Sequence record: PQ306574.1
Direction: 5' to 3' (one strand)
Source of the DNA: Escherichia phage vB_EcoM_PTE-Eco09
DNA: 64,000 bases
A program made the translations under genes and the position numbers. Under the pieces are notes generated by a model that was not told the origin of the DNA, searched no databases, and saw only the letters and a program-made list of their open reading frames with translations. This document shows positions 4,206-54,540 of this stretch, in pieces. How positions within the stretch are numbered: position 1 is the stretch's first letter; each line of letters begins with the position of its first letter.

Positions 4206-4226
4206 GATACTGATGGGATAGGGGTA

Positions 4227-4255
4227 TTGACAAACTAAGTCGATTCCCCTATAAT
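4227..4255 (+). promoter_or_regulatory. sigma70-like early promoter upstream of gene 43
   Basis: TTGACA-17 nt-TATAAT; inverted repeat ATAGGGG...CCCCTAT spans the -35/-10 region. Confidence 0.5.
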
Positions 4256-4287
4256 GAGTGTCTTTCGTAAGTGAAGGAGTTTATATT

Positions 4288-5489
4288 ATGTATTTTCTGT
4301 CATGTGAGCGAGTGGGTGATAAGATCTACGAGCGTTATATTGATGATGCTGGACAAGAACAAGAGCGTTACGTTGAATATACGCCAACTTTATTTCATCA
4401 TGCCGCGCCTGGTATGGTTACGAATTATAAAGATATCTATGGCAAGCCTTGCATTGCTAAAAAATTCCCATCTATGAACGAGGCCAACAAATGGCGTAAA
4501 AAGATGGGAGAAATGGGGCAGGAGGCACTAGGGATGGATGATTTTATCATCTCCTATCTGTCTGATACGTATAAAGGCGAGATTCGATATGACCGAAATA
4601 AAATCCGTGTAGCATGGGTTGATATCGAGGTCACTGCCCCAGAATTTCCTAAACCAGAAGAAGCGAAATATCCTATCGATGCAATTACGCATTATGATTC
4701 CGTACATGATCGTTTCTTTGTATTTGACTTGAAAGGAAAAAACGGTGAAATCTGGGAAGCAAGCAAGTCTATTCTTCGACCTGATATTGTAGAGCGCGTT
4801 GTTTATAACGTCTATGACACAGAAGATGAATTGCTGTTAGAATACATCCGATTCTTTGAGGAAAACCGACCCGTTGGTTTCACTGGCTGGAACACAGAAA
4901 CATTCGATATTCCATATATCATTAAACGTATCAGTAATAAGTTCGGAAGTAGAACCGCTAACCGTCTAAGCCCGTGCGGTAAGATTAAATCCAGAATCTC
5001 ACAGGATGATTTTGGCAACGAGCGTGAAGCATTTACGATCATGGGGATCGAAAGCCTTGATTATATTGACCTGTACAAGAAATTTAGCTTTACGACTCAA
5101 CCAACATATGCGTTAGATTATGTTGCTGAATATGAGACAGGAATCGGTAAGGTTGATTATGATGGTCCGTTAAAGAAATTGCGTGATGACAACCATCAAC
5201 TTTACATCGATTATAACATCGGCGACGTTGATCGTGTGCTGGCGATTGATAAAAAGCGTGGATTTATCGATCTTGTGTATAGTCTATGTTTCTATGCAAA
5301 GATTAAATTTAACCATGTTTATAACCCGATGAAAGTATGGGATGCTATTATCTTCGGATCTCTGAAAGCTGAGGGTAAAGTAGTACCGGAAAATAAGATA
5401 CAGCCTAAGCAGACTTATCCTGGCGCATTTGTAAAAGAACCTGTGCCGAATGCTTACCGCTGGATGATGAGTTTTGACCTTACTTCCCT
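4288..5489 (+). CDS. 43: DNA polymerase gp43, exon 1 (N-terminal/exonuclease half, ends within the SLYPS motif)
   Basis: MYFLSCERVGDKIYERYID matches the T4 gp43 N-terminus; FDIEV exo motif. The frame hits a stop 7 nt after the proposed 5' splice site. Confidence 0.9.
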
Positions 5490-6602: not shown

Positions 6603-8079
6603 GTATCCATCAATCATCCGTCAGGTTAATATTTCGCCGGAAACAATCGCCGGATCTTTTGATGCTGCACCGATGCACGAGTATATCAATAAAACTGCCC
6701 CGCGTCCGAGTGATGAGTATTCTTGCTCTCCTAACGGATGGATGTATAGAAAAGATATTCACGGTATCGTACCGATTGAGATTAAAAAGGTATTCGATCA
6801 GCGTAAGCAGTACAAAAACATGATGTTGGCATGTGATCGCAATGCTGAACTCTGTAAAGCGATTCTACACGATGAAAATCATGTTTATGGGGGAACCATT
6901 AGCTATAGCGTTGAAGTACGTCACGACTTTGATGAAGCGTTTAAATCGATGCTTTCTGAATTAAGTAAAGATGCCTTAGAGAAATTGCTGGAAGAATGTA
7001 AAGACGAGTCGATCTTGTGCAATACAAACCAGCTTTCTCGAAAAGTTTTGATCAACTCCCTTTATGGTGCGTTGGGGAATCCTAAATTCCGTTTTTATGA
7101 TCTCCGTAACGCTAGTGCGATCACCTTGTTTGGTCAGCTTGCAATTCAGTGGATTGAGCGTAAGATTAACGAATACTTAAACGAGCTTTGCGGAACAACC
7201 GATTTTGCATATGTTCGTTATTGTGATACTGACTCCGTTTATGTGCTGGTTAACAATGTTGTTGATAAGGTTGGCGGGGAAGACCGTTTCGACGATACCG
7301 AAAAACTTGTTGACTTCCTTGATAATTTCGGTAAACATCGAATGGAACCTATTATCGACAAGGGATATCGCGAGTTATGCGAGTACATGAACAACTATGA
7401 GCACTTGATGTTTATGGACCGTGAGGCAATTGCTGGTCCTCCGTTGAAATCTGCGGGTATCGGTGGATTCTGGACTGGCAAAAAGCGTTATGCTCTTAAT
7501 GTTTGGGATATGGAAGGAACGCGCTTTGCTGAACCTAAGCTAAAAATCATGGGCTTGGAAACGCAACGTAGCTCCACCCCTAAAGCATGTCAGAAATCAC
7601 TGAAAGAATGTATTCGCCGTATGTTGCAGGAAGGTGAAGAGTCATTGCAGGAATACTACGGTATTTTTGAGCAAGAATTTAGAAAACTTGATTATCTTGA
7701 GGTTGCTGCGGTATCATCTGCAAACAACCTACAGAAATACAGCGATTCAAACGGGTATCCGATTAAGGGTTGTCCGTATGCGGTTAAGAGTGTATTGTGT
7801 TATAATCGTAATGCTCGAAAATTCGGACTAGATCCAATTCGTGAGGGCGAGAAGGTTATGATTGTACCGCTGAAAGATCGAAATCCGTTTGGAGAAATCT
7901 GTTTTGGTTGGTTGTCCGGTACTCGTATTCCTCCAGAAATTGAATCAGAGGTGTTAAAGTGGTTAGACTGGCCTTTGTTGTTTAATAAGACTTTCGTCAA
8001 ACCACTGGAGAACATTACCACGGCTGCAAAGCTGCAATATGAGAAAGTTGCTTCTCTGACTGACCTGTTTGACATTTAA
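6603..8079 (+). CDS. 43: DNA polymerase gp43, exon 2 (polymerase half)
   Basis: Frame is open from 6583 and encodes YPSIIRQVNISPETIAG upstream of the first Met (6673). Contains YGALG, DTDS motifs; C-terminal SLTDLFDI resembles the clamp-binding tail. Confidence 0.9.
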
Positions 8080-8140
8080 GATAAAGTGTGTATAATGGCG
8101 GGTGTTGGGTGACGATACCCGCCAACGTGAGAAATATACG

Positions 8141-8329
8141 ATGAGAGACATTGAAAAGATTAAACGTGAACGTGAGGAAGGCATAGAGCATTTCAAGAAA
8201 GTTCACGGAAATCACAGCAACGAAGTATTTGTGACGATCGATGTTGATGCGATGAAAAAGTTAATTCAAGAGCACTACAAAGATCGAATAACAATGAAGC
8301 AATTAAAGTATTACGGATTAACTGAATAG
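8141..8329 (+). CDS. hypothetical protein
   Basis: 62-aa ORF with ATG at 8141 between 43 and uvsX. Confidence 0.4.
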   Translation: MRDIEKIKREREEGIEHFKKVHGNHSNEVFVTIDVDAMKKLIQEHYKDRITMKQLKYYGLTE

Positions 8330-13863: not shown

Positions 13864-14382
13864 ATGTCAGAATTTAATTCTTGTGCTGGTCTGGTTAACG
13901 AAAAAGATATTAACGCGGCTATCGCCGCATATCATCACGCTATTGCAGAAGGTAAAGATCCGTTTCAGGTGATGCTCGAAATGCAAACTGGTTTGCAGGT
14001 TGCATTATCCGAAAAATTTGATTGGGTCCCAAATCCAACTAAGCTAGAGACTTGCGGTGAAATGCTGGATTGGATGCAACGGATGGATGACGCTATCGCA
14101 GACGAAACACGAGAGCTTTACACATCGCTGGGTGGAATGTCCAATGGTAAAGATGCAAGTGCAATCTGGAAAATGTGGAAAAAGAACCACGGAGAAGCGC
14201 GAGCGCGTAAATTCTCTGAACTGTCACCGGAAGATCAGCTTGAAGTGAAATTTGAATTTGTGGACGCGATCCACTTCATTCTGTCAAAGATGATCCCGCT
14301 GGGTATTGACGCTCAAGAACTCTTTATTCTGTACTATCTGAAAAATGCTGAAAACTTCGCCCGTCAAGAACGCGGCTACTAA
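13864..14382 (+). CDS. putative dNTP pyrophosphatase (gp56 dCTPase-like)
   Basis: About 172 aa at the position where T4 has gene 56; acidic helical protein. Assignment tentative. Confidence 0.4.
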   Translation: MSEFNSCAGLVNEKDINAAIAAYHHAIAEGKDPFQVMLEMQTGLQVALSEKFDWVPNPTKLETCGEMLDWMQRMDDAIADETRELYTSLGGMSNGKDASAIWKMWKKNHGEARARKFSELSPEDQLEVKFEFVDAIHFILSKMIPLGIDAQELFILYYLKNAENFARQERGY

Positions 14383-14418
14383 AAATTAGTTGACACTACT
14401 CTATAATGGTTTTATTAT

Positions 14419-14442
14419 GCCTCCCGTCGAAAGATTGGAGGC
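14419..14442 (+). promoter_or_regulatory. 5' leader hairpin immediately upstream of the ADP-ribosyltransferase-like gene
   Basis: GCCTCC-CGTCGAAAGATT-GGAGGC followed by TTTTTTATT and ATG 14452. Confidence 0.4.
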
Positions 14443-14451
14443 TTTTTTATT

Positions 14452-14955
14452 ATGCAATTTACACCAGAAGAACTTAACATCATTGATGAAGTGATGAACT
14501 CTAAAGAAAATATCGATATGTCGATCCTTAATGGATTGATTGAAAAGACTGAGCGGTTAGTGCATCATGAAGCCTTGTATCGCGGTGTGAGCAAAAGAGA
14601 AGGCCGTAAGCTGGATACCTTAATTGTGGGTGATTCTTTCGTTGTAGAGCGTCCTATGAGCTTTACGCCACTACAATCAACAGCAGAGGACTTTGCAACC
14701 GATGTTTATGCAACAGGAAAGATTATTGCAATAAAACCTACCAAGCCTTGCATGAATTATTACGAACATGCTATTGACCGAGTGGTGTCTAAAGAGTATG
14801 ACAATCCGACTACTCGACTGTCTTTGTATGCTATGTTGGCAGATGAGCGCGAGTGCATATACAAGACAGGGACGACCATGATCCTTGATGAGATCGAGGA
14901 AGTTTACGCGTGTAACGGCGATCTGATAGAGATTTACAAATTTTCTTTAATTTAA
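14452..14955 (+). CDS. putative ADP-ribosyltransferase (Mod/Alt-like, R-S-ExE type)
   Basis: Ordered motifs LYRG (Arg), SFT (STS-like) and ERE (ExE); located near dda where T4 has modA/modB. Confidence 0.5.
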   Translation: MQFTPEELNIIDEVMNSKENIDMSILNGLIEKTERLVHHEALYRGVSKREGRKLDTLIVGDSFVVERPMSFTPLQSTAEDFATDVYATGKIIAIKPTKPCMNYYEHAIDRVVSKEYDNPTTRLSLYAMLADERECIYKTGTTMILDEIEEVYACNGDLIEIYKFSLI

Positions 14956-14958
14956 GTG

Positions 14959-14987
14959 TTGACAGCACAAACCAGATAGACAATAAT
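14959..14987 (+). promoter_or_regulatory. sigma70-like early promoter
   Basis: TTGACA with an A/T-rich -10 17 nt downstream. Confidence 0.45.
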
Positions 14988-15016
14988 ACACACATACCAA
15001 CTAAGGAGAATCAATT

Positions 15017-15772
15017 ATGAAACTGTTTGCTTTTAAATCTAACGAAGAATTGGCGCTGGTTGTTTTCCGGCTGAACTCTATCATGGCTGGTGCTTCACGT
15101 CGCAACAAAGACTTCTCTATGAGCTTAGTCACTGTTCGTAACATTTACCGTCAGACTCATTGTGCCTATTCAGGTGAGGCTTTCGGTGAAGGTGATGACG
15201 GACTCTCCTTAGAGCGCATTGATTGCAATCTGGGATATGTTGATGGCAATGTAATTCCGGTTAAACTGAAATACAATTCTTTCCGTGGAAATCACACTAT
15301 CGAATCTCTTAAAGAGATCCAGGAACTGGGAACTAACGGTAAACTTTCTGATGATGAAATTGCCCTACGTGCGAAGTACATCGAGTGGATCGAACTTAAC
15401 GAGAATCGCATCAAAAATCAGGAAATGGCAATCGAAGAAAAGAAATTAGCAATCGAGCGCCACAAAAAGCACAACGAACCGGAGAAAGCAGAGGCAGCCG
15501 AGCGAGCGATTAAAAATACTCTCTTCCGTATGGAAGAACGTTATCAGAAAATTGCAGATCTCAAGCAAGCACTTAGCGAAATCAACAAGAAAGAAGAAAA
15601 ACTTAAGGCTATTGCAAACAATACCGAAATCGTGCTAAAATATACCAGCGTTTTGATTGAATCTCTTTCTAAGTATGAGAACTTAACGCCAGCACAAAAA
15701 GAACGCGTGAAATACGGGCTTCCGATTGATGCGTCGTGGATTGAATTGATGAAAGCGAAGGTAGGTTTATAA
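15017..15772 (+). CDS. hypothetical protein with degenerate HNH-like motif and long coiled-coil C-terminus
   Basis: HCAYSGEAF...LERIDCNLGYVDGNVIPV...NSFRGN resembles an HNH core with the catalytic His replaced; remainder charged and helical. Confidence 0.45.
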   Translation: MKLFAFKSNEELALVVFRLNSIMAGASRRNKDFSMSLVTVRNIYRQTHCAYSGEAFGEGDDGLSLERIDCNLGYVDGNVIPVKLKYNSFRGNHTIESLKEIQELGTNGKLSDDEIALRAKYIEWIELNENRIKNQEMAIEEKKLAIERHKKHNEPEKAEAAERAIKNTLFRMEERYQKIADLKQALSEINKKEEKLKAIANNTEIVLKYTSVLIESLSKYENLTPAQKERVKYGLPIDASWIELMKAKVGL

Positions 15773-18748: not shown

Positions 18749-18922
18749 ATGCCATTATACGATTATTCTTGTGAAGAACACGGTCAATTTCAGAAAATCC
18801 GCAAAATTTTCGAGCGTGAAAAGGCAGAATGCCCTGAATGTGGGAAAGAATGTAAACAGGGATTAACTGCCCCGCGCGGGATTAATGGCGGGTATTACGA
18901 TAAAAATGTGCGCGTGTCATGA
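18749..18922 (+). CDS. small zinc-ribbon protein (FmdB-like CxxC...CxxC)
   Basis: MPLYDYSCEEHG...CPECGKEC. Confidence 0.5.
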   Translation: MPLYDYSCEEHGQFQKIRKIFEREKAECPECGKECKQGLTAPRGINGGYYDKNVRVS

Positions 18923-18954
18923 GTCATATACTTGACAATCACTCAATTTTTAAT

Positions 18955-19029
18955 ATGATTGTTGCAGCCGTCTTTGTGGCGGTTGCAGTAAGTTATGGTT
19001 ATGTTATGAAGAGGTTTAATAATGAGTGA
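18955..19029 (+). CDS. tiny hydrophobic leader ORF overlapping the gene 39 start
   Basis: 24 codons (MIVAAVFVAVAVSYGYVMKRFNNE); its stop overlaps ATG 19022. Confidence 0.25.
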   Translation: MIVAAVFVAVAVSYGYVMKRFNNE

Positions 19030-20845
19030 GTTTCGCATTTTATCTGATCGTGAACATGTCCTTAAGCGTGCAGGAATGTATATAGGATCAACAACTTACG
19101 AAGAACACCAACGTTTCCTGTTCGGTAAATGGACAAAAATTTCATATGTTCCAGGACTGGTTAAAATCATTGATGAGATCATCGACAACTCTGTAGACGA
19201 GGCGATTCGCACTAATTTTGAATTTGCCAATGTGATTAGCGTCGATATCCAAAACAATATTGTTACGGTAACAGACAACGGTCGCGGTATTCCTCAACAT
19301 ATGGTTACTACCCCAGAGGGCACGCAGATTCCGCAACCTGTAGCCGCATGGACACGAACAAAAGCAGGGTCTAACTTTGATGATACCAATCGATTAACGC
19401 AAGGGATGAACGGTGTGGGGTCGTCGTTGTCAAATTTCTTTAGCGATTGGTTTACTGGTGTGACCTGTGACGGAGAAACAGAAATGACCGTTCAATGTAC
19501 AAACGGTGCTGAAAATATCACATGGTCATCGAAACCATCAAAATTGAAGGGAACAAAGGTTACATTTTGTCCAGACTTCGACCACTTCGAAGGTTATATG
19601 ATGGACAACTCTGTTTTAGATATTGTTCATGATCGTCTGCAATCATTGAGCGTAATCTTTCCTAAGATCACGTTTAAGTTTAATGGTAAACGTATTGTTA
19701 GTAAGTTCAAGGATTATGCTAAACTATACAATGATGATCCGTTTGTCATTGAAGATAAAAACTTTTCACTTGCCCTAGTTCCTGCGGTCGAGGGAGAAGG
19801 TTTTAAATCAGTATCCTTTGCTAATGGTCTGTTTACCAAAAACGGGGGAACACACGTAGACTACGTGACAGATGATCTTTGTGAAGAGATTGTAAAACGA
19901 ATCAAGAAAGAACATAAGGTTGATGTTACTAAAGCTGCGGTTAAGTCTGGATTGACCTGTATTCTTATTGTTCGTGAATTGCCTAACCTTCGTTTTGATT
20001 CACAGACAAAAGAACGATTGACTAATCCAACTGGTGATATCAAGCGTCATATTGATCTTGATTTTAAAAAGCTGGCTAAAGTCATTGCGAAGAAAGAAAA
20101 CATTATCATGCCTATTATTGCTGTAGTCCTGGCACGCAAAGAGGCAGCAGATAAAGCGGCAGCGACTAAGGCAGCCAAAGCAGCGAAACGGGCTAAGGTA
20201 GCAAAACACGTTAAAGCTAACCTTATTGGAACTGACGCAGAAACTACCCTGTTTTTGACGGAAGGTGATTCCGCGATCAACTATCTGGTCTCTGTACGTG
20301 ATCCAGATTTACATGGAGGTTTCCCGTTGCGAGGCAAAACTCTTACAACGTGGGAACAACCGGAGGCAAAGATCGTTAAGAACGCCGAAATTTTTAACAT
20401 CATGGCGATCACTGGTTTGCAATTTGGTGTTGATGCATTGGAAGTTATGCAATACAAAAATATTGCGATTATGACAGACGCTGATACTGACGGGATCGGG
20501 TCTATTAAACCTAGTCTGATCTCTTTCTTTGCACGTTGGCCTGAATTGTTCGAAGATGGACGAATCCGGTTTATCAAAACACCTATTATCATTGCGGAAC
20601 CAAAGAAAGGTGATGATGTTCGATGGTATTATGACCTAGAAGATTTCGAGAACGACCGAGATAATATCAAAGGTTATAGCATTCGATATATCAAAGGGTT
20701 AGCATCTCTTACAGAATCAGATTATCATCGCGTGATCAACGATCCTGTAATGGAAATCATCACGTTACCGGAAAACTATAAAGAGCTATTCGATTTGCTC
20801 TATAGCGAAGATTCAGACCGCCGCAAAATTTGGATGCAATCATAA
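19022..20845 (+). CDS. 39: topoisomerase II large subunit (GyrB-like), fused gp39/gp60-type
   Basis: 607 aa; GHKL ATPase motifs (IDNSVDE, DNGRGIP); Toprim region continuous with no gap. Confidence 0.85.
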   Translation: MSEFRILSDREHVLKRAGMYIGSTTYEEHQRFLFGKWTKISYVPGLVKIIDEIIDNSVDEAIRTNFEFANVISVDIQNNIVTVTDNGRGIPQHMVTTPEGTQIPQPVAAWTRTKAGSNFDDTNRLTQGMNGVGSSLSNFFSDWFTGVTCDGETEMTVQCTNGAENITWSSKPSKLKGTKVTFCPDFDHFEGYMMDNSVLDIVHDRLQSLSVIFPKITFKFNGKRIVSKFKDYAKLYNDDPFVIEDKNFSLALVPAVEGEGFKSVSFANGLFTKNGGTHVDYVTDDLCEEIVKRIKKEHKVDVTKAAVKSGLTCILIVRELPNLRFDSQTKERLTNPTGDIKRHIDLDFKKLAKVIAKKENIIMPIIAVVLARKEAADKAAATKAAKAAKRAKVAKHVKANLIGTDAETTLFLTEGDSAINYLVSVRDPDLHGGFPLRGKTLTTWEQPEAKIVKNAEIFNIMAITGLQFGVDALEVMQYKNIAIMTDADTDGIGSIKPSLISFFARWPELFEDGRIRFIKTPIIIAEPKKGDDVRWYYDLEDFENDRDNIKGYSIRYIKGLASLTESDYHRVINDPVMEIITLPENYKELFDLLYSEDSDRRKIWMQS

Positions 20846-20848
20846 CAC

Positions 20849-20891
20849 TTGACATACAAGGGAGATTCTCTATAATGGGAGTCTCCCTTTT
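20849..20891 (+). promoter_or_regulatory. sigma70-like promoter with the -10 element inside a GC-rich inverted repeat
   Basis: TTGACA-16 nt-TATAAT; GGGAGA...TCTCCC flank the -10, followed by TTTT. Confidence 0.5.
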
Positions 20892-20910
20892 CGTTTATGA
20901 GGATTTAATA

Positions 20911-21210
20911 ATGAGCAAAAAGAATAACATGATGATGAGTATGACAAAGTTCATGGAAGTAGACCTGATCAAAAATACAGTACAACATGAACGCCAGCGA
21001 GAAGCCGCAGTGATTGCAGAACAAGGTTTTCAGGTTATCCACAATCCACCTAAAGACACGGTTAAATCGAAATACAGAGACGATCTGAAAGACCATGAAG
21101 TACGGGAACTGGTTAATGATCTGCGTGACATTGCCATCAAATATCATGGTTATCAGTGCTTACGAGAACTGATCGCAGAGCGAGTAATGGATGCATTGAA
21201 AAAAGATTAA
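20911..21210 (+). CDS. hypothetical protein
   Basis: 99-aa ORF with RBS GAGGA. Confidence 0.45.
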   Translation: MSKKNNMMMSMTKFMEVDLIKNTVQHERQREAAVIAEQGFQVIHNPPKDTVKSKYRDDLKDHEVRELVNDLRDIAIKYHGYQCLRELIAERVMDALKKD

Positions 21211-21217
21211 AAATCTG

Positions 21218-21246
21218 TTGACACTGGATCGGGGATATATCATAAT
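21218..21246 (+). promoter_or_regulatory. sigma70-like early promoter
   Basis: TTGACA-17 nt-CATAAT; GGGGA...TCCCC flank the -10; CATCGAAAAC leader. Confidence 0.5.
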
Positions 21247-21267
21247 GTCCCCATCGAAAACAAAAGG

Positions 21268-21471
21268 TTGACTTATATGAAACCGTTTAAGAATGAAGAA
21301 ACTCAAAAATTTTGTGAAAAAATTGCAGAAATCTACTTGACAGGGGAGAAGGAAAAAGCTAATATTATGTTCAAAGAGTCAGTTTCCATGATGAAAGTAG
21401 CACGCTGGGAACTGATCGCAATGCAAGACCAAATTCGTTATCTAGTAACAAAGGAGAATCAAAATGCGTAA
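21268..21471 (+). CDS. hypothetical small protein
   Basis: 67-aa ORF. Confidence 0.4.
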   Translation: MTYMKPFKNEETQKFCEKIAEIYLTGEKEKANIMFKESVSMMKVARWELIAMQDQIRYLVTKENQNA

Positions 21472-28252: not shown

Positions 28253-28263
28253 CTGATTATTAA

Positions 28264-28290
28264 GCCGATCCTTGTGGTCGGCTTTTTTAT
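28264..28290 (+). terminator. intrinsic terminator
   Basis: GCCGATCC-TTG-TGGTCGGC hairpin followed by TTTTTTATTTT. Confidence 0.7.
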
Positions 28291-28302
28291 TTTAAAAAGT
28301 TG

Positions 28303-28331
28303 TTGACTTACAGAATCCAACATTGCATAAT
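28303..28331 (+). promoter_or_regulatory. sigma70-like early promoter
   Basis: TTGACT-17 nt-CATAAT; conserved leader CCAAACAAAAGGAGAATCA before the ATG. Confidence 0.55.
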
Positions 28332-28362
28332 ACACCCATACCAAACAAAAGGAGAATCAAAG

Positions 28363-28635
28363 ATGAACAACGAAAACAGCAAAGTGTTGGCAATTGCAGA
28401 TAAAGTATGTTACTGGAAATGCTGGGATGATATGGAGAAATTAGGCGGTCGCTATCTCGATAACTTAGAGTTGCATTATTGCCAAGCGCGTAATACAGAA
28501 GTTGCGGGAGTAGCAATTGAAGATATCCCGTCTAAGGTCTTCGGATTCTCTAAAGATGATACTTTAGAATATGTTTTCAAGGCTGTTATGGATCAAGCAT
28601 GGGAAGACGCAGAGACACGCGCTCTTGACTGGTGA
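28363..28635 (+). CDS. hypothetical protein
   Basis: 90-aa ORF with RBS AGGAG. Confidence 0.45.
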   Translation: MNNENSKVLAIADKVCYWKCWDDMEKLGGRYLDNLELHYCQARNTEVAGVAIEDIPSKVFGFSKDDTLEYVFKAVMDQAWEDAETRALDW

Positions 28636-28639
28636 TATT

Positions 28640-28810
28640 ATGAACTGGTATAAAATTTGGAAAAATCAGGTTGAGGCTTATCTAGGGTATAAGCCCACCG
28701 ACAAAGAATTACTTGATGCAATGTACGAAGACGGACTAAATCCGAAAGTAGCCGCACAAGAATACGCGGAATGGGTGAAGGTCGAAGATAACCTAAAGGG
28801 GAAACTATGA
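28640..28810 (+). CDS. hypothetical small protein
   Basis: 56-aa ORF from the ATG at 28640. Confidence 0.35.
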   Translation: MNWYKIWKNQVEAYLGYKPTDKELLDAMYEDGLNPKVAAQEYAEWVKVEDNLKGKL

Positions 28811-29031
28811 AGAAAATGATTGCGATTGCTTTGCTGGCTAGTGCATGTACGGTAAATGCTAATACCGCAGCGATGGTCGCGGCTGTAACTGCTGCAAATG
28901 CGTCTGTTATGGCATCTCAAGAGGCAGCACGCCAGCAAGCACAACAAGAAGCCCAGCGAAAAGCACATGAGGCGACGAAAAATTTTCACGAAAATAACAA
29001 AAAACTAGTTGACGCCAAAGGTCATCGGTAG
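28807..29031 (+). CDS. small secreted/periplasmic protein (signal peptide)
   Basis: MKKMIAIALLASACTVNA signal-like N-terminus, then an Ala/Gln-rich helix. Confidence 0.45.
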   Translation: MKKMIAIALLASACTVNANTAAMVAAVTAANASVMASQEAARQQAQQEAQRKAHEATKNFHENNKKLVDAKGHR

Positions 29032-29037
29032 TATTAT
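29009..29037 (+). promoter_or_regulatory. sigma70-like early promoter
   Basis: TTGACG-17 nt-TATTAT, then ACTCCCATACCGAAACGAA leader. Confidence 0.5.
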
Positions 29038-29071
29038 ACTCCCATACCGAAACGAACTGGAGGAAATAAAA

Positions 29072-29218
29072 ATGGTTAAAGTTAATGTTATCGAAGTTGC
29101 ACTGTACGACGCTGGAATCTTCCTGAATGAAAAAGAAGCTGCTGTGCTCGACGAACTGAAAACTGTTTTTGTTCCTGTAGTAGAAGACGTTGAAGCAATC
29201 AAAAATCGCTTCTCGTAA
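29072..29218 (+). CDS. hypothetical small protein
   Basis: 48-aa ORF with RBS GGAGG. Confidence 0.35.
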   Translation: MVKVNVIEVALYDAGIFLNEKEAAVLDELKTVFVPVVEDVEAIKNRFS

Positions 29219-29321
29219 ACTGTCCCGCGAAGCATTCGATATGATTGACCCGGTTTTCAAAGTTATGCACGAATGCGCGGTGATGATGACCGAAGAAGAA
29301 GCGAAAAATTTCTAAAACTGG

Positions 29322-29356
29322 TTGATGTAAAGAAATGGGAGTATTAACATACTCCC
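29322..29356 (+). promoter_or_regulatory. sigma70-like early promoter with palindrome around the -10
   Basis: TTGATG-17 nt-TAACAT; perfect inverted repeat GGGAGTA-N6-TACTCCC (29337-29356). Confidence 0.5.
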
Positions 29357-29383
29357 ACACAGAAACGAAAGAAGGAGAATCAC

Positions 29384-29596
29384 ATGAAATCTATTGAGCA
29401 AGTAGTGACCGAATTTATGAGCTACGAAGGAAACCGCATCTTTGGACGTTCTCAAGTTCGCGAGATCGTAGAAGAAGTTGCGGGAGAGTTTGCGGAATCT
29501 GGTCACGTTATCACGCAAGAACGTAAAGAAGAAGCTGTAAGCCAGATCATGGCTATGCAGAAAATGCGTATTAATGCACGAGCGGGTAAAAATTAA
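29384..29596 (+). CDS. hypothetical small protein
   Basis: 70-aa ORF with RBS. Confidence 0.45.
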   Translation: MKSIEQVVTEFMSYEGNRIFGRSQVREIVEEVAGEFAESGHVITQERKEEAVSQIMAMQKMRINARAGKN

Positions 29597-29603
29597 AAAG
29601 TAG

Positions 29604-29638
29604 TTGACACCGGATTAAGGGAGTAGTAAGATACTCCC
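29604..29638 (+). promoter_or_regulatory. sigma70-like early promoter with palindrome around the -10
   Basis: TTGACA-17 nt-TAAGAT; GGGAGTA-GTAAGA-TACTCCC (29619-29638). Confidence 0.55.
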
Positions 29639-29666
29639 ATCAAGACAAAACATTGAGGAATATATT

Positions 29667-30425
29667 ATGAAAAACATTATCGCTGCTATCGTTCTTTCCG
29701 CTACTGCTTTCGGTGCTAATGCTGCGTCCTTTGATTGCGCTAAAGCCACTACCAAATCAGAGAAGTTTATTTGTGCTAATGAGTCAATCTCCGCACTGGA
29801 TTCGAAACTTCATGAAGTATATGTTAAGGCTGTTAAGATTGATCCGTCTCTTAAACAAGAGCAACGTAACTGGAATAAAACTGTTCGTGATACAATGATC
29901 AATATCGGGCAGATTCAGCCACTGGAGGCTGTATATAACGCTCAAATCCAAAACTTGATGAATGTATTACCTAAAGAAGAAACCGCGTCAGAAAGCGATT
30001 CAGAGACTTCTGTGAAGGTTGAAGAAGAACAACCGAAACAGGAAGCAAAAGTGGTAGAAGAACCGAAGGTCGAAACTTTTACCTATCAATGCACCGTTCG
30101 TTATGAGTGGAGTATGAAAGATGGAATTTCTACCAAAATTAAAGAAGCGCCACTGTATGCCAAATATGGAAATCAACCAGGAGATCTTAAAGTAACCATT
30201 AAAAATGGGAAGATGGTTGATTTTGTATACATTGATGAATACAACGTACACAAAGCAAACGTACAAGAAACCGTTATGACTAAAGGCGGGTTTTATAAGA
30301 ATGTTGGCAAGAAAGATCTATATGAATACTCCGTTTTCGAACCAAACGACGGAACTATTCGATTTGAAAAACGTCATCCGACATTCGGTGGAGCAATTGA
30401 TGTAGATCAATACGTTTGCAAGTAA
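29667..30425 (+). CDS. secreted protein with DUF1311/LprI-like N-terminal domain
   Basis: Signal peptide MKNIIAAIVLSATAFGANA; then FDCAKATTKSEKFICANESISALDSKLHEVY, matching the DUF1311 pattern as remembered. Confidence 0.5.
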   Translation: MKNIIAAIVLSATAFGANAASFDCAKATTKSEKFICANESISALDSKLHEVYVKAVKIDPSLKQEQRNWNKTVRDTMINIGQIQPLEAVYNAQIQNLMNVLPKEETASESDSETSVKVEEEQPKQEAKVVEEPKVETFTYQCTVRYEWSMKDGISTKIKEAPLYAKYGNQPGDLKVTIKNGKMVDFVYIDEYNVHKANVQETVMTKGGFYKNVGKKDLYEYSVFEPNDGTIRFEKRHPTFGGAIDVDQYVCK

Positions 30426-46217: not shown

Positions 46218-46898
46218 ATGATCAGAAACCGTCTTCCTCCAGATCCAGATATGCGAATTAATGCTAAATCTGTGTATATGTTATATTGCATGATGAAAGC
46301 TCATATGAACGGGCGTTATGATTGCGTAAAATACAATTGGAGGATGCGGTTGTCTGATGCCGCATTCAATAAACGCAGAGATAAGTATTATTTCGCAAAA
46401 TTAGCGGAAAAGTACAATCTAAGAGAATTATACTTCCTATTCCTAAGCAATCTGGTAGCTAATACCGATGCATGGGTAGGTGAAATCACCGATGTTGACG
46501 CATACGGGTTTTACATGGAGTACATCGGTAAAATCACTGATGCGGCAACACGATTTGACGATGACATTAAAAGTCTTGTATACTTCTCAGAGAAACGCGG
46601 GGTTACTCTTAAAGAGCTAATTACATATAATCCCGCAACCGAAACTAGCGGTATCTTTAAACTACTGCAAAATCGGATTATATCGTTTGAGTCGTTTATG
46701 TTGTTAGATAGCTTTCTAAATATAATCGACGAACACGACAAGGTAGCCAAAGACTTGATTTGGCAAACTTATAGTGTTAAAATGAAGGCGTACAAGAAAC
46801 TACTTGTTATTGACGCCGCAAAAGCAAGAGCATTATTTGTTAAAGTAGTTAAAGAGTGTAAAGAAATATCTCAATTAAAAGCCGAAACAAATAGTTGA
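46218..46898 (+). CDS. 59: helicase loader gp59
   Basis: 226 aa; SVYMLYCMMKAHMNGRYDCVKYNWRMRLSDAAFNKRRDKYYF and FLSNLVAN match remembered T4 gp59. Confidence 0.9.
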   Translation: MIRNRLPPDPDMRINAKSVYMLYCMMKAHMNGRYDCVKYNWRMRLSDAAFNKRRDKYYFAKLAEKYNLRELYFLFLSNLVANTDAWVGEITDVDAYGFYMEYIGKITDAATRFDDDIKSLVYFSEKRGVTLKELITYNPATETSGIFKLLQNRIISFESFMLLDSFLNIIDEHDKVAKDLIWQTYSVKMKAYKKLLVIDAAKARALFVKVVKECKEISQLKAETNS

Positions 46899-46958
46899 CA
46901 AGTAAATTTAAATCTGTATAATAGTCTAGTAAATTAATCAAAAGAAGGAATAGTGAAT

Positions 46959-47936: not shown

Positions 47937-47965
47937 CAGCCTCCCTCCGGGAGGCTTTTTTATTG
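47937..47965 (+). terminator. intrinsic terminator after gene 32
   Basis: AGCCTCCC-TCCG-GGAGGCT followed by TTTTTTATT. Confidence 0.7.
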
Positions 47966-47987
47966 CCTAAAATTTTATGAAAAGGTG

Positions 47988-48015
47988 TTGACATGCTTAT
48001 GTGGTAATGTATAAT
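47988..48015 (+). promoter_or_regulatory. sigma70-like early promoter
   Basis: TTGACA-16 nt-TATAAT, then CATCGAAACAATGGAGGA leader. Confidence 0.55.
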
Positions 48016-48045
48016 GCACACATCGAAACAATGGAGGATAAAAAT

Positions 48046-49260
48046 ATGTTAGTACGTCAAGCGCATGAAATTGAATGGACTAAGGAGAAACATAATTGTA
48101 GAGCGAAAAGCCCAACAGATTTTTATGGTAAAATTTTAGAAATATGTAAAACAGAAAATTTAGTTTTTGTCGGCTTTGTTGGGGAATGGGAAGGAAACAA
48201 AACAAAAATAAAACTTATCTGCGAACATGGTCATGAATGGATATGTTCGATAGATAAATTTGTAAGTAAAGGAACAAGATGTTCTCATAAACAATGTAAA
48301 GGTAAACGAATATCTAAAAAATTGTCTATATCCGAAACGGAATACAAAACGAGAATTTTAGAAATATGTGAAACTGAAAATCTAATTTTCTTAGGTTTTG
48401 TTGGTGAATGGAAAGGGTGTGATACTAAAATTCGCATAAAATGCAAATACGGTCATGAATGGGATGTATCTATATATAGCTTCACAAAAATGAATACCAG
48501 ATGCCCTACATGCGCAGGACAGAACAGGACAAAAGACGAATACAAAACGAGAATTTTAGAAATATGTGAAACTGAAAATATAATTTTCTTAGGTTTTGTT
48601 GGTGAATGGAAAGGATGCCGCACAAAAATAAAACTTAGCTGCAAACACGGTCATGAATGGATATCTTCCATATTATGTTTTGTGTATCAAAATACTCGCT
48701 GTCCTGTATGTGTTGGTAGATTGTCTATCGACGATAGAATGATACAGATTAATCAAGTTTGCAATTCTTTAGGTTATGTAATAATTAAGATCCACGAAGA
48801 ATGGAAAAACACAGAAACTAAAATTGATGTTAAATGTTTATGTGATTATATATGGACAACAACAATACATAGAGTCATACATGGGACTACAGGTTGCAGA
48901 AAGTGTGCTACACATGGATACAATACAAAAAAATCGGGGACTCTTTATATACAGAAATTAACCAACGATGATTCCTTTGTTGGTGTGAAATTTGGAATAA
49001 CAAACAGAGACACGAATGAACGAATGAAAAACCAATCATCAAAGTCTAAATTCGACCATGAGATCTTTTATGAATTGACTTTACAAGACGGTCAAAAGAT
49101 CTTAGAATTAGAGAACAAGATCAAGAAAGCGATGAAAGGTAAAACTTCCTATATCTCAAAAGAAGATATGCCGGATGGCTGGACCGAAACAGTAGCGCCG
49201 TCTGAATTGAGCACTATCATGTATATCGTAAAAACTTTTGAAAAAGAGTTGACAGCGTAA
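48046..49260 (+). CDS. protein with three tandem zinc-ribbon repeats and a C-terminal T5orf172/GIY-YIG-like domain
   Basis: Repeats FxGFVGEW.G..TKI...C..GHEW......F......RCP.C; C-terminal GTLYIQKLTNDDSFVGVKFGITNRDTNERM. Confidence 0.55.
   Translation: MLVRQAHEIEWTKEKHNCRAKSPTDFYGKILEICKTENLVFVGFVGEWEGNKTKIKLICEHGHEWICSIDKFVSKGTRCSHKQCKGKRISKKLSISETEYKTRILEICETENLIFLGFVGEWKGCDTKIRIKCKYGHEWDVSIYSFTKMNTRCPTCAGQNRTKDEYKTRILEICETENIIFLGFVGEWKGCRTKIKLSCKHGHEWISSILCFVYQNTRCPVCVGRLSIDDRMIQINQVCNSLGYVIIKIHEEWKNTETKIDVKCLCDYIWTTTIHRVIHGTTGCRKCATHGYNTKKSGTLYIQKLTNDDSFVGVKFGITNRDTNERMKNQSSKSKFDHEIFYELTLQDGQKILELENKIKKAMKGKTSYISKEDMPDGWTETVAPSELSTIMYIVKTFEKELTA
48340..48735 (+). repeat. 198-bp tandem duplication inside the 48046-49260 CDS
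   Basis: About 78 bp from 48340 and from 48538 are identical apart from one mismatch; a more diverged third unit lies upstream near 48121. Confidence 0.75.
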
Positions 49261-49276
49261 CGCAATAGTGTATAAT
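49249..49276 (+). promoter_or_regulatory. sigma70-like early promoter
   Basis: TTGACA-16 nt-TATAAT, then ATCGAAACAACGGAGGA. Confidence 0.55.
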
Positions 49277-49305
49277 GCACATATCGAAACAACGGAGGAT
49301 TAACA

Positions 49306-49635
49306 ATGTTTTTGAATGCCACCCTTTCCCAGAAAAGTGATAAAATCGAACTTCTGTATGTCATTGCTGATGTGGACGTACAACGAAGAAATATAGATTT
49401 AAAAATTCACAAATATTATACTATGAGCGAATATCATGAAATAGAGATCCCACATAGTGTGTATCCTGCATTATTGTTAGGAAAAGGAAATCTAAGTGAA
49501 TATTCTTTGAAAGTCATCAAAGATTCTAAATCAATGCTTGCTCATATGGAAAAAGATTTTCTTGATGAAGTTTCCGCGCTAGTTATTAAACTGAAAGAAG
49601 AAACAGCACCGCTTTTCATGGAACAAAAAGGTTGA
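49306..49635 (+). CDS. hypothetical protein
   Basis: 109-aa ORF. Confidence 0.45.
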   Translation: MFLNATLSQKSDKIELLYVIADVDVQRRNIDLKIHKYYTMSEYHEIEIPHSVYPALLLGKGNLSEYSLKVIKDSKSMLAHMEKDFLDEVSALVIKLKEETAPLFMEQKG

Positions 49636-49659
49636 CGCCGAACACAGATGATGTATAAT
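49632..49659 (+). promoter_or_regulatory. sigma70-like early promoter
   Basis: TTGACG-16 nt-TATAAT, then CATCGAAACAAAGAGAGGA. Confidence 0.55.
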
Positions 49660-49690
49660 ACAAACATCGAAACAAAGAGAGGACTATATT

Positions 49691-50020
49691 ATGTGGACAG
49701 TAGAAAAAATCGTTGACGAATCAACCGAAATTGTCTCGTGTGGCACTATTGAAGAATGTCTTAAAGCCGCTAACCGTGAATGTATTACGGTTTATGAATC
49801 CCGTCGCGGTGATGGTAGCTTGATTCAAAGTGATTATCGTTACACCGCACATAAAATTGTATTCCGTTTCTGGGAAAACGGTGTCAATGTCGGTGTCAGC
49901 TTACTGAAAATGTGGCGTGATTATTCCGAACGCTACTATGTTTCTCCTGATGATGGTAATGAATTTAAGACAGCAATCACAGAAGAAAATGTAAACGAAA
50001 ACTATTTCAAACTGATTTGA
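49691..50020 (+). CDS. hypothetical protein
   Basis: 109-aa ORF. Confidence 0.45.
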   Translation: MWTVEKIVDESTEIVSCGTIEECLKAANRECITVYESRRGDGSLIQSDYRYTAHKIVFRFWENGVNVGVSLLKMWRDYSERYYVSPDDGNEFKTAITEENVNENYFKLI

Positions 50021-52228: not shown

Positions 52229-54472
52229 ATGATTAAAAATGTTGTTAAGTCTTCCGGTCTGACTGTTCCGTTTGAAAAAGAAAAAGTAATGAAAATTCTG
52301 GAAGCGGCAGCCGAAGGTCATAACGTTGATCCATATGAATTGTTTGATATGGTTGAACCACTTCTGACAGAAGGTATGTCTACCAATGATATCCAGAAAG
52401 TATTGATTAAGGTCGCCGCAGATAACATCACGGTAGAAACACCCGATTATCAATATGTAGCAAGTAACCTTGCAATGTTCGCGCTTCGTAAATCAGTATA
52501 CGGTCAATTCCAACCTATTGATTTTTATAGCCATATTGAGCGTAATATTGCAACCGGAAAATATGATCGCGAAATTCTGCAAAAATATTCCCGTGAAGAA
52601 GTGGAATATCTGGAGAAATTCATCGACCATAAACTTGATTTTAAAATGACCTATGCTGGTGCGATGCAGTTAAAAGAGAAATATCTTGTTCAGGATCGCA
52701 GCACTAAGAAAATCATCGAAACACCGCAATTTGCGTATATGCTGATCGGTATGTGCTTGCATCAAGAAGAGACCGAAAATCGACTTGAACATGTGATTGA
52801 TTTTTATAATGCGGTTGCGAATAAGCAAATCTCTCTGCCTACTCCGATTATGGCAGGTGTGCGTACCCCAACACGCCAATTTAGTTCGTGTGTGGTGATT
52901 GAAAGTGATGACTCATTGCAGGGTATTAATGAAACCGCAAATGCAATCATCAAGTATATTAGCAAGCGTGCTGGTATCGGTATCAACGCTGGCATGATTC
53001 GCGCGGAAGGATCTAAGATCGGGCATGGTGAAGTTCGTCATACTGGAGTTATCCCATTCTGGAAACATTTTCAGACTGCCGTTAAGTCATGCTCACAAGG
53101 CGGTATTCGTGGCGGGGCGGCGACTCTCTATTACCCAATGTGGCATTTAGAGTTTGAAAGTCTGATTGTGTTAAAGAACAATAAGGGGGTGGAAGATAAC
53201 CGCATTCGTCATCTTGATTACGGCGTACAGATTAATAACCTGATGGTAGAGCGATTCCTTAAACGGGATTACATTACTCTGTTTAGTCCAGATGTTGCAG
53301 GTGGCTTGTTGTGGGATCTATACTTCCGAGATGAGGAAGGTTTCCGCCAGCTTTACGAAAAACTGGAAAAAGATCCGAGTGTTCGTAAAACTCGTGTTAA
53401 AGCCGAAGACCTGTTTTTAGCGGTGGCAATTGAACGTTTTAACACTGGTCGAATCTACCCAACGTTCACAGACAACATGAACAATCACGGGGCGTTTATT
53501 CGTAATGTAGCACCGATTAAACAATCTAACCTGTGTTGTGAAATTGCTCTGCCAACAAAACCGATGGGTCGTGATGATTCAGAGATCAGCCTATGCACTT
53601 TGGCAGCATATGTTTTAGGTAATTTCGATATCGAAAATATGGAAGAAGTAGAACGCATTGCTATGGTTATGGTGCGTGCACTTGACAACCTGTTAGATTA
53701 TCAGGATTATCCTGTAGAACAAGCTCTGACAGCCAAAAAACGTCGCTCTCTGGGTGTTGGTGTGACTAACTTTGCATCGTATCTAGCAGATAATTTCTTC
53801 ACATATGAAGACGCTAGCGAGTTTACGCATAAAACGTTTGAACGCTTGCAATATGCTCTGATTAAGGCTAGTGTGCGACTGGCTAAAGAGAAGGGTGCTT
53901 GCGAACTGATGCACGAAACACGCTATGGTCGCGGTGAACTTCCTATCGACTGGTACAAAAAGACAGTAGATGAACTGGTTGATCCGGTGTATGAGATGGA
54001 TTGGGAAGAACTGCGCGAAGACCTGAAAAAATATGGCATTCGTAACAGTACGCTTTCGGCGCTGATGCCCTGTGAGTCATCTTCTCAGGTGTCTAACAGC
54101 ACAAACGGTATTGAACCGCCTCGCGGGATTGTATCGGTTAAAGGATCGAAAGAAGGGCAATTTAATCAGGTTATTCCGAACGTAGAGAATAATGCTGATG
54201 TTATTGACCTGCTTTGGACACTGATCAAGAAAGGTAACAAGCCCTATCTGACACTGGCAGCGATCATGCAGAAGTTTGTAGATCAGGCGATTAGTTCCAA
54301 TACATCCTATGATCCAAGCACTTATAAGACTGGTAAAGTCGATATTGCTGATGTGTTAGATGATATGTTGTTCGCTCAACATTACGGTCTGAAAACCCTG
54401 TATTATGCGAACGTTCGCGACGGTGCAGATGGTACGGAAGACGCTAGCGAGTGCTCATCTTGCAAGCTGTAA
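52229..54472 (+). CDS. nrdA: ribonucleotide reductase large subunit NrdA
   Basis: 747 aa; N-terminal ATP-cone, class I RNR core; C-terminal CSSCKL-type tail. Confidence 0.9.
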   Translation: MIKNVVKSSGLTVPFEKEKVMKILEAAAEGHNVDPYELFDMVEPLLTEGMSTNDIQKVLIKVAADNITVETPDYQYVASNLAMFALRKSVYGQFQPIDFYSHIERNIATGKYDREILQKYSREEVEYLEKFIDHKLDFKMTYAGAMQLKEKYLVQDRSTKKIIETPQFAYMLIGMCLHQEETENRLEHVIDFYNAVANKQISLPTPIMAGVRTPTRQFSSCVVIESDDSLQGINETANAIIKYISKRAGIGINAGMIRAEGSKIGHGEVRHTGVIPFWKHFQTAVKSCSQGGIRGGAATLYYPMWHLEFESLIVLKNNKGVEDNRIRHLDYGVQINNLMVERFLKRDYITLFSPDVAGGLLWDLYFRDEEGFRQLYEKLEKDPSVRKTRVKAEDLFLAVAIERFNTGRIYPTFTDNMNNHGAFIRNVAPIKQSNLCCEIALPTKPMGRDDSEISLCTLAAYVLGNFDIENMEEVERIAMVMVRALDNLLDYQDYPVEQALTAKKRRSLGVGVTNFASYLADNFFTYEDASEFTHKTFERLQYALIKASVRLAKEKGACELMHETRYGRGELPIDWYKKTVDELVDPVYEMDWEELREDLKKYGIRNSTLSALMPCESSSQVSNSTNGIEPPRGIVSVKGSKEGQFNQVIPNVENNADVIDLLWTLIKKGNKPYLTLAAIMQKFVDQAISSNTSYDPSTYKTGKVDIADVLDDMLFAQHYGLKTLYYANVRDGADGTEDASECSSCKL

Positions 54473-54480
54473 AATAAGTG

Positions 54481-54509
54481 TTGACGCGGGGAGAAATCCC
54501 CGCTATAAT
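54481..54509 (+). promoter_or_regulatory. sigma70-like early promoter with hairpin in the spacer
   Basis: TTGACG-17 nt-TATAAT; GCGGGGA-GAAA-TCCCCGC lies between -35 and -10. Confidence 0.5.
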
Positions 54510-54540
54510 ACAACCATCAAAAACAAGTGAGGATTTTATT

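Follow-up and report, generated by a model that had tools for sequence, protein, structure and literature searches.

The closest described relatives of the elements considered here are the promoter-early stem-loop (PeSL) cassettes, of which Arbiol, Comeau, Kutateladze, Adamia and Krisch reported 51-52 motifs in the coliphages RB49 and phi1 (2010, Genome Biol Evol 2:140; PMC2839356). Their promoters are identical to the sigma70 consensus, they end at their 3' side with a Shine-Dalgarno sequence and a start codon, and their stem-loops fall into five positional subclasses, the commonest lying between the boxes or overlapping the -10; the published set also allows for PeSLs devoid of hairpin. They are located mainly in hyperplastic regions upstream of ORFans, and also on both sides of gene 43 (PMC2839356). 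Here, we analyse a stretch of 64,000 nucleotides from Escherichia phage vB_EcoM_PTE-Eco09 (PQ306574.1), called the window below. It contains 21 early promoter cassettes that are, with a probability that we put at about 0.85, the PeSLs of a Krischvirus similar to RB49. The observation is real but not new, since the element has been described in this very group of phages.

Various properties of the published PeSLs were obtained by experiment. In lacZ fusions, PeSL206/205 displayed strong promoter activity, and the stem of PeSL211/210 caused a terminator-like drop in expression, comparable to that of rrnB T1, which the authors read as termination or attenuation. Furthermore, 10 of the 14 differential ORFans are contiguous to a PeSL, and inverse PCR revealed circular molecules made of an ORF plus a PeSL (mini-circles) from the ORF192 and ORF210 regions of RB49 (PMC2839356). 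Comeau, Arbiol and Krisch (2014; PMC4122927) later gave the RB49 type as 'GN-loop-CN' with TTGACA...N17...TATAAT. According to Nolan et al. (2006), RB49 early promoters are C-rich at -3 to -1 and the early consensus agrees with 5' end mapping.

Genomic context and data sets

The window shares 96-97% identity with genomes of the RB49 group (T4-type coliphages, Krischvirus). A 4-kb query around the repeats matched 58 GenBank phage records, all of them Escherichia or Shigella Krischvirus, the closest (97% identity) being kaaroe, MIZ4/5 and RB49. Mapped through annotated relatives, the window extends from the gene 46 to the gene 30 region. Its + strand carries early replication and nucleotide-metabolism genes, while the tail-fibre genes 34-37 and the holin gene form a - strand block at ~32.7-43.4 kb, in agreement with the reversal of GC skew there. 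Eight genomes were used as comparators (kaaroe, RB49, phi1, SSG23, Brandy, Makalu_002, LF73P4 and a second RB49 assembly), and indels were called by chaining the BLAST high-scoring segment pairs (HSPs) between the window and each of them.

Cassettes with the anatomy of PeSLs

All 21 cassettes are on the + strand and present, in this order, an AT-rich tract, TTGACA, N16/17, TAnnAT, a C-rich discriminator, an A-rich leader, GGAG and ATG (Table 1). Fifteen of them can be aligned across ~85 nt (aaaaAGnnG, TTGACA, N16/17, TAtAAT, aCnCCC, ATCGAAAC..., (A)GGAG, ATG). The profile built from these 15 retrieves all of them as well as cassette 14390, with significant matches on the + strand only, and five further sites (2201, 4227, 8069, 18932 and 20849) combine a promoter and a hairpin with differing leaders. 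With the same profile, 16-20 cassettes are found at syntenic places in RB49, phi1, kaaroe and SSG23. Moreover, RB49 is annotated with a hypothetical early promoter at the places matching cassettes 2201, 4227 and 8069, and the orthologue of the gene 32 cassette (46895) is labelled 'early RB49 promoter' in the RB49 record.

A preliminary description, made from the letters of the window alone, had counted at least 15 such sites, likened them to PeSLs and proposed to align their motifs. The alignment recovers the common layout, with profile hits on the + strand only; the count rises from the 15 alignable sites to 21, and the resemblance is borne out since the window belongs to the group in which PeSLs were defined (PMC2839356) and shows the same anatomy. 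The conserved leader that it attributed to these sites is shared among the aligned cassettes as variants, including CATACCAAAC, CATCAAGAC and CATCAAAAAC, but the exact sequence CATCGAAAC is found in five cassettes only.

The pattern TTGAC-N18-TAnnAT has 19 matches in the window versus 1.1 expected, 17 of them on the + strand. The hexamers of all 21 cassettes show at most two mismatches, cassette 29322 having two in each hexamer. The 22 nt upstream of the promoters are richer in AT than the background (0.66 versus 0.595, p = 0.002), and the core cassettes share AAAAAGnnG. In 20 of the 21 cassettes, a Shine-Dalgarno sequence of GGAG/GAGG/AGGA type precedes an ATG that opens an ORF of 48-607 aa; the ATG is located 23-62 nt 3' of the -10, and the Shine-Dalgarno is weak at 8069. 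Three clusters are seen, all upstream of hypothetical ORFs: one follows gene 52 (28.3-29.7 kb) and the others are at 47.9-49.7 kb and 57.4-58.3 kb. Gene 43 is flanked by cassettes 4227 and 8069.

Loose scans of the window found 44 promoter-like sites versus 39 in shuffles and 10 terminator-like sites versus 9.8, that is no enrichment at such thresholds; only the strict + strand matches stand out. The leader motif with one mismatch allowed (29 matches versus 20 expected) is uninformative alone. No Rfam family matches the cassettes. A scan of IMG/VR with the UP/-35 15-mer AAAAAGTAGTTGACA returned single chance matches on at least 120 unrelated contigs and was of no use for collecting cassettes; protein-anchored retrieval of the locus in the same database gave two Krischvirus contigs, the rest being unrelated ~35 kb contigs with a homologue of a 252-aa ORF. 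Two matches to CATCGAAAC, at 19527 and 52714, were rejected as chance matches within coding sequence. Site 61059 (TTGAAA-N17-TATTAT), which is inside pseT.2 and has neither hairpin nor profile match, was omitted as doubtful.

Comparison with the RB49 and phi1 PeSLs reveals nothing essential that differs. The two sets share the genus, the syntenic positions, the near-consensus TTGACA-N17-TATAAT, the upstream AT-rich tract, a G(n)-loop-C(n) stem that takes the same range of positions and the Shine-Dalgarno plus ATG at the 3' end. Both are also found around gene 43 and, in hyperplastic regions, upstream of ORFans, and both are associated with ORF indels. The assortment of cassettes and ORFs is peculiar to the window phage: for instance, the RB49 ORF261 module is missing at 29588 and a 506-bp module is found at 28797-29304. 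Two of its stems are degenerate. The PeSLs that were examined by experiment (193/192, 206/205 and 211/210) map outside the window. PeSLs from the PST/T4 and nt-1/KVP40 pairs (PMC4122927) are likewise composites of an early promoter and a stem-loop found in hyperplastic regions next to differential ORFs; however, their promoters (TTTACW... and TTGYVH...) and stems (AGNA-loop-TCNT and A3-4G3-loop-C3T3-4) differ from the RB49-type sequences of the window.

Table 1. Early promoter cassettes of the window (all on the + strand), named by the first position of their -35 hexamer; z is the RNA-folding score of the hairpin region
Cassette	Context	Span	-35	-10	Hairpin	Hairpin position	ATG	z
2201	gene 45/44 junction	2179..2291	2201-2206	2224-2229	GGGGAGTA-TAAA-TACTCCCC 2235-2256, then GTTTT	just after -10	2289 (gene 44)	-4.1
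4227	upstream of gene 43	4205..4290	4227-4232	4250-4255	stem 4218-4252	around -35 and spacer	4288	
8069	after gene 43	8047..8143	8069-8074	8091-8096	12 bp, 8096-8124	just after -10	~8141	-4.3
14390	upstream of modB	14368..14454	14390	14413-14418	GCCTCC...GGAGGC 14419-14442, then T6	just after -10	14452	-4.7
14959	upstream of srd	14937..15019	14959	14982-14987	none		15017	
18932	upstream of gene 39	18910..19024	18932	18954-18959	18962-18988	just after -10	19022	-5.1
20849		20827..20913	20849	TATAAT 20871-20876	13-bp stem 20858-20889, loop exactly the -10, then TTTTCGTTT	bracketing -10	20911	-5.0
21218		21196..21279	21218	CATAAT 21241-21246	GGGGATAT...ATGTCCCC 21231-21252	bracketing -10	21277	-2.8
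28303		28262..28365	28303	28326-28331	canonical terminator 28262-28284, then T6	upstream of -35, in AT-rich tract	28363	-4.0
29009		28987..29074	29009	29032-29037	degenerate GGTAGTA...TACTCCC	remnant of a -10-bracketing stem only	29072	-0.7
29322		29300..29386	TTGATG 29322	TAACAT 29345-29350	9 bp, 29336-29357	bracketing -10	29384	-5.2
29604		29582..29669	29604	TAAGAT 29627-29632	GGGAGTA-N6-TACTCCC 29619-29638	bracketing -10	29667	-3.7
46895	upstream of gene 32	46873..46955	46895	46917-46922	none		46953	
47988		47938..48048	47988	48010-48015	canonical terminator 47938-47956, then T6	upstream of -35, in AT-rich tract	48046	-3.9
49249		49227..49308	49249	49271-49276	none		49306	
49632		49610..49693	49632	49654-49659	none		49691	
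54481		54459..54543	54481	54504-54509	GCGGGGA-GAAA-TCCCCGC 54486-54503	spacer	54541	-6.0
57453		57415..57508	57453	57476-57481	canonical terminator 57415-57438, then T6	upstream of -35, in AT-rich tract	57506	-4.1
57732		57710..57796	57732	TAAGAT 57755-57760	TGGGGTA...TACTCCC 57747-57766, weakened in this phage	bracketing -10	57794	-1.2
58013		57991..58082	58013	TAATAT 58036-58041	GGGGGTA-N6-TACCCCC 58028-58047	bracketing -10	58080	-3.3
58238		58216..58302	58238	TAAGAT 58261-58266	GGGAGTA-N6-TACTCCC 58253-58272	bracketing -10	58300	-4.6

Hairpins of the cassettes

A GC-rich hairpin is present in 16 of the 21 cassettes. With up to two mismatches, GGGAGTA-N6-TACTCCC has five matches, all on the + strand (29337, 29619, 57747, 58028 and 58253), whereas shuffles give an expectation of 0.07 and none of 100 shuffles reaches five. 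Under a strict definition (stems of 6 bp or more, with four or more G-C pairs and no more than one G·U pair), the + strand has 53 hairpins, nine of which lie within the cassettes that make up 3.6% of the window (p = 1e-4). In RNA folding, 13 of the 16 hairpin regions reach z <= -3.3, and no more than 1 of 200 shuffles attains such stability. The hairpin of cassette 54481 is unchanged across five genomes. All the palindromes quoted in the preliminary description are present (including those at 20860-20887, 2236-2255 and 58028-58047), two of them with corrected positions: 58251-58270 becomes 58253-58272 and 54487 becomes 54486. The terminator with the same arms that it had placed after gene 45 was also found, gene 45 occupying 1537-2223 and the hairpin at 2236-2255, followed by GTTTT, preceding the start of gene 44 at 2289.

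A U-tract follows the hairpins at 2236, 14419, 20858, 28262, 47938 and 57415, and is missing from the other -10-bracketing hairpins, from the spacer hairpin at 54486 and from those at 8096 and 18962. In 15 of the 16 cassettes, the start predicted ~7 nt past the -10 lies within the hairpin or 3' of it; cassette 2201, the exception, is the sole one with a predicted start at the hairpin base. Since the predicted transcript of a cassette begins inside or 3' of its hairpin, the latter would exist only in RNA arriving from upstream.

Two observations concern particular hairpins. In the modB cassette (14413-14454), the 3' arm of the terminator-like hairpin (GCCTCC...GGAGGC, then U6) is the Shine-Dalgarno sequence of the gene itself, and the predicted start of the adjacent promoter is just past the 5' arm. 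Read-through RNA would mask the Shine-Dalgarno and terminate, and the RNA of the cassette itself would leave it free. Among the comparators, cassettes such as RB49 31050, 66725 and 67138 carry the spacer palindrome GGGGATC-N3-5-GATCCCC, which places one or two GATC (Dam) sites in the promoter spacer; the window has no cassette with this palindrome.

RNA pairing versus protein operators

To compare stems, 166 cassettes from 13 sources were extracted in a fixed register. Among them, the arms bracketing the -10 are GGGAGTA/TACTCCC in 33, GGGGGTA/TACCCCC in 12 and GGGGGTA/TACTCCC, which pairs through G·U, in five; the combination GGGAGTA/TACCCCC, which would oppose A and C, was never seen. In the 35 distinct sequences, 98.4% of stem cells are paired, compared with 46-75% when the partner is slid. 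One stem pair covaries (A-U 24, G-C 7, G·U 4, A·C 0). Other variants preserve pairing by wobble on the + strand only, such as TACTCTC in phi1 and the two G·U pairs at 20849. Moreover, orthologues of cassette 21218 have ATCCCC or GTCCCC (U·G wobble), and those of cassette 57732 have GGGGGTA with TACTCCC (G·U) or TACCCCC. The four unpaired cells consist of two at stem ends and two internal mismatches, the latter only in one unannotated assembly. The stems are also better conserved than the loops and than the -10 hexamers inside the loops.

According to the preliminary description, the palindromes could equally be operators, that is sites where a dimeric sequence-specific regulator from the phage or the host would sit over the -10 or the spacer and shut the early promoters off. 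The -10-bracketing palindrome is strongly conserved (GGGRGTA/TACYCCC) and its fixed register from -20 to -1 would suit promoter occlusion; furthermore, RB49-type phages lack MotA and middle promoters. However, such an operator implies a fixed half-site spacing and a dyad symmetry of the duplex, and the arms depart from both. The arms GGGAGTA and TACTCCC are separated by N4 past the -10 at 2236-2255 and by N6 elsewhere (e.g. 29619, around the -10), and the arms of the spacer palindrome GGGGATC...GATCCCC by 3 to 5 nt depending on the copy. Most variants pair through G·U on the + strand, which corresponds to A·C on the opposite strand and breaks the symmetry of the duplex. In addition, other cassettes have unrelated stems (GCGGGGA, GGGAGATTCTC, GCCTCC and GGCGGGTG), and the palindromes occur solely in the sense orientation of the transcribed strand. 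The operator claim is therefore weakened to the point where we regard it as highly improbable, and the mostly preserved pairing, together with the varying loop length and promoter position, favours an RNA hairpin acting on read-through transcripts.

Recombination between cassettes

The window and the eight comparators differ by 17 distinct indel events, eight of which have a boundary in a cassette. This exceeds what is expected for random positions (p = 6e-6) and also for gene junctions, ~23% of which carry a cassette (p = 0.0016). Five of the events have flanking HSPs that overlap by 18-96 bp, and aligning the sequences directly reveals chimeric cassettes. Cassette 29604 joins the flank of RB49 cassette 31050 to the core of RB49 cassette 31273, with a crossover in the AT-rich tract, and cassette 28303 joins the left part of SSG23 cassette 29894 to the right part of SSG23 cassette 30167, with a crossover in the leader. 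Exchange between 47988 and 49249, also in the leader, removed a 404-aa ORF in four genomes, and exchange between 58013 and 58238 (95-bp HSP overlap) removed a 49-aa ORF in SSG23 and Brandy. The 109-aa ORF between 49249 and 49632 was lost by a crossover at the -10 in RB49 and phi1 and by a crossover in the leader in kaaroe; these two crossover points indicate independent events. The coincidence of cassettes with gene-content breakpoints, which the preliminary description had proposed to check, is thus observed in 8 of 17 events, with five chimeric junctions.

Several cassettes recur at breakpoints. In four genomes, an indel of 235-243 bp has its breakpoint at cassette 28303. The 506-bp segment that contains cassette 29009 is absent from RB49 and phi1, its right breakpoint (29304) being in cassette 29322, and at 29586-29615, in cassette 29604, seven comparators have 196-491 bp more, made up of one additional ORF and cassette. 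Likewise, cassette 47988 provides the left breakpoint (48045-48050) in seven genomes, and cassette 49249 is involved in two indels (48050/49229 and 49302/49625).

The events outside cassettes comprise three window-specific inserts of homing-endonuclease type, swaps in the tail-fibre gene product gp37, replacements within ORFs at 30068-30711 (phi1) and 31659-32320 (Makalu_002 and Brandy), an insert of 311-320 bp at 52173-52212 (SSG23 and Makalu_002), an 890-bp insert at 33705-33731 (LF73P4) and one duplication through a 58-bp coding/Shine-Dalgarno repeat at 17660/17781. The latter corresponds to a 178-bp small ORF at 17602-17840, similar to ORF009.1 of phi1, which is present in the window and phi1 and absent from kaaroe, RB49, SSG23 and LF73P4. 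Its flanking 58-bp direct repeat consists of the last codons, Shine-Dalgarno and ATG of neighbouring paralogous ORFs, which indicates that junction repeats other than promoters also drive the gain and loss of ORFs.

The G(n)...C(n) stem could also be the target of a dedicated recombination protein recognising its sequence or its structure, in which case exchange would be site-specific and would not simply follow from general homologous recombination. This idea goes back to the original authors, who cited GGGC/GCCC motifs at T4 deletion end points (PMC2839356), and the higher conservation of the stems over the enclosed loops and -10 hexamers would fit it. However, crossovers are scattered over the AT-rich tract (29604), the -10 (RB49 and phi1) and the leader (kaaroe, 28303 and 47988 x 49249). 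Furthermore, cassettes 49249 and 49632, both devoid of hairpin, recombined at least twice, the 17660/17781 indel used a repeat without promoter or stem, and T4-type recombination needs only short homology (discussion in PMC2839356). We therefore consider a stem-targeted exchange very unlikely. Slightly less improbable, and still unlikely, is the broader proposal that the GGGRGTA...TACYCCC and GGGGATC...GATCCCC stems are more than RNA hairpins and are recognised, as DNA or in an extruded or single-stranded form, by a specific phage protein; this protein would either target recombination to the cassettes or switch early promoters off, MotA being absent from these phages. A protein-binding role of the GGGG...CCCC stem was already put forward by the original authors (PMC2839356). 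If true, PeSLs would be a protein-guided gene-cassette system and would resemble an integron more than passive homology.

Two other systems bear comparison in this respect. Lambdoid morons (Hendrix et al. 2000, as discussed in PMC2839356) are also accessory genes with their own promoter and terminator, insulated from the surrounding transcription, but no conserved repeat flanks them and their insertion is not ascribed to the flanking sequences, whereas in PeSL cassettes the regulatory repeat is the crossover site. Integron gene cassettes are also arrays of small promoter-dependent ORF cassettes separated by imperfect palindromic repeats (attC), with circular intermediates. However, integrons depend on an integrase that acts on folded attC, and most of their cassettes are promoterless, whereas no integrase is known for PeSLs, whose crossovers are spread over the repeat.

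A model for the cassettes and its weak points

Promoter activity, terminator activity and mini-circles have been demonstrated for sister cassettes in RB49 and phi1, and the best-supported scheme for the window is the published one. Each cassette (~90 bp, intergenic, on the early-gene strand) would start a new early transcript from a near-consensus sigma70 promoter with an A-rich UP-like tract and a C-rich discriminator. This transcript would begin ~7 nt past the -10 with an unstructured A-rich leader and lead, after the Shine-Dalgarno, into a gene that is usually small and of unknown function. The hairpin would form only in read-through RNA from upstream, where it would stop or attenuate transcription or block 3' decay. 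Each gene would thereby be insulated and run from its own promoter. Moreover, because a sequence of ~90 bp recurs ~20 times in the window, cassette pairs would serve as portable homology: general homologous recombination would use them as crossover sites to delete, insert or swap the intervening ORFs.

The fate of the read-through RNA could differ from this scheme. The promoter hairpins devoid of U-tract might act post-transcriptionally, as a barrier to 3' exonucleases or as a processing signal, the drop in lacZ then reflecting the fate of the RNA and not the release of polymerase; we judge this rather unlikely. The -10-bracketing and spacer hairpins have no T-run, and three other cassettes have separate canonical terminators upstream. 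T4-type early mRNA is heavily controlled by decay, for instance by RegB cutting GGAG then A-rich sites; the Shine-Dalgarno AAGGAGAAUCAAA of the cassettes appears to resemble a RegB site, and RB49 has a divergent regB. Against this, the drop caused by the PeSL211/210 stem is comparable to that of rrnB T1 and was taken by its authors for termination or attenuation (PMC2839356). This stem, TTGACA-GGGGATCACGTATCCCC-TATACT, is a spacer hairpin without U-tract, of the same class as the one at 54486-54503 in the window.

Several points weigh against the scheme as a whole. Transcription start sites in this phage are predicted from sequence, and so is termination by -10-bracketing hairpins without U-tract. 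These hairpins and the spacer hairpin are not canonical intrinsic terminators since they lack this tract, and PeSL211/210 is the only such stem assayed, in a reporter. Five of the 21 cassettes have no hairpin, two stems (29009 and 57732) are degenerate in this phage, and the transcript of cassette 2201 itself would contain the entire hairpin. The covariation is thin, one of seven pairs changing on both sides, and four cells are unpaired; the stems may hence be conserved for their sequence. Concerning recombination, two of the eight cassette-associated events involve HNH-type endonuclease genes beside or in place of a cassette and not an exchange of cassette by cassette. In LF73P4, a 588-bp insert at 20818/20849, just upstream of the -35 of cassette 20849, has an ORF that resembles, by sequence likeness only, the HNH_3 + AP2 protein of the window, and the gene 32 cassette (46887-46954; event 46895) has given way, in Makalu_002, to a gene whose annotation is putative HNH endonuclease. 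Finally, the 17660/17781 indel used a non-promoter coding/Shine-Dalgarno repeat, which implies that any junction repeat can serve.

Inserts and other mosaicism

Three inserts of the window are described here. A 1124-bp insert (5479-6602) splits gene 43, encoding the DNA polymerase, into ORFs 4288-5496 and ~6603-8079. It carries ORFs with an HNH-like motif (EVHHICPKS) and no Pfam match, as well as a sub-threshold match to group I introns at 6292-6552 (33 bits, E = 2e-6, gathering score 50). This insert is absent from RB49, phi1, kaaroe and SSG23, whereas 11 further Krischvirus genomes share it at 98-99% identity (ECD7, MIZ4/5, Cognac, ELT4 and others); it is partly found in JSE, and fragments occur in Acinetobacter, Proteus, Providencia and Erwinia phages. 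A second insert, of 569 bp (43347-43917), is located in the intergenic region from which gene 34 (- strand) and the rnh-side genes diverge, encodes a 196-aa HNH_3 + AP2 protein of homing-endonuclease type and is absent from all seven comparators covering the region. A third, of 712 bp (55065-55778), is upstream of nrdB and absent from six comparators; the 216-aa protein that it encodes has a NUMOD3 motif and is HNH-like at its N-terminus. A homing endonuclease is annotated at the same place in SSG23, and the location recalls that of T4 mobE between nrdA and nrdB.

The 252-aa ORF located downstream of cassette 29604 (29667-30422) encodes a protein with a signal-peptide-like N-terminus. Homologues with 58-65% identity (79% over a partial match on two contigs) are found on nine non-Krischvirus IMG/VR contigs of ~23-36 kb, which suggests that this ORF may be exchanged with other mobile elements. 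In addition, parts of gene 37, encoding the distal tail fibre (34052-36508, - strand), have been replaced in comparison with kaaroe, LF73P4, Makalu_002 and Brandy, as is usual in the mosaicism of receptor-binding domains.

Significance

The window provides a re-finding of PeSLs in another RB49-like genome, with independent support from eight further genomes. This support comes from the indel junctions, where cassettes are chimeric, from one ORF with two or more separate crossover points and from stem variants that mostly keep RNA pairing. The existing picture of PeSLs is unchanged by the window, and the published reading is only slightly sharpened. Few concrete mechanisms have been put forward to explain how T4-type phages shuffle their large pool of small accessory genes, which includes candidates for host takeover and anti-defence, and PeSLs are among them.

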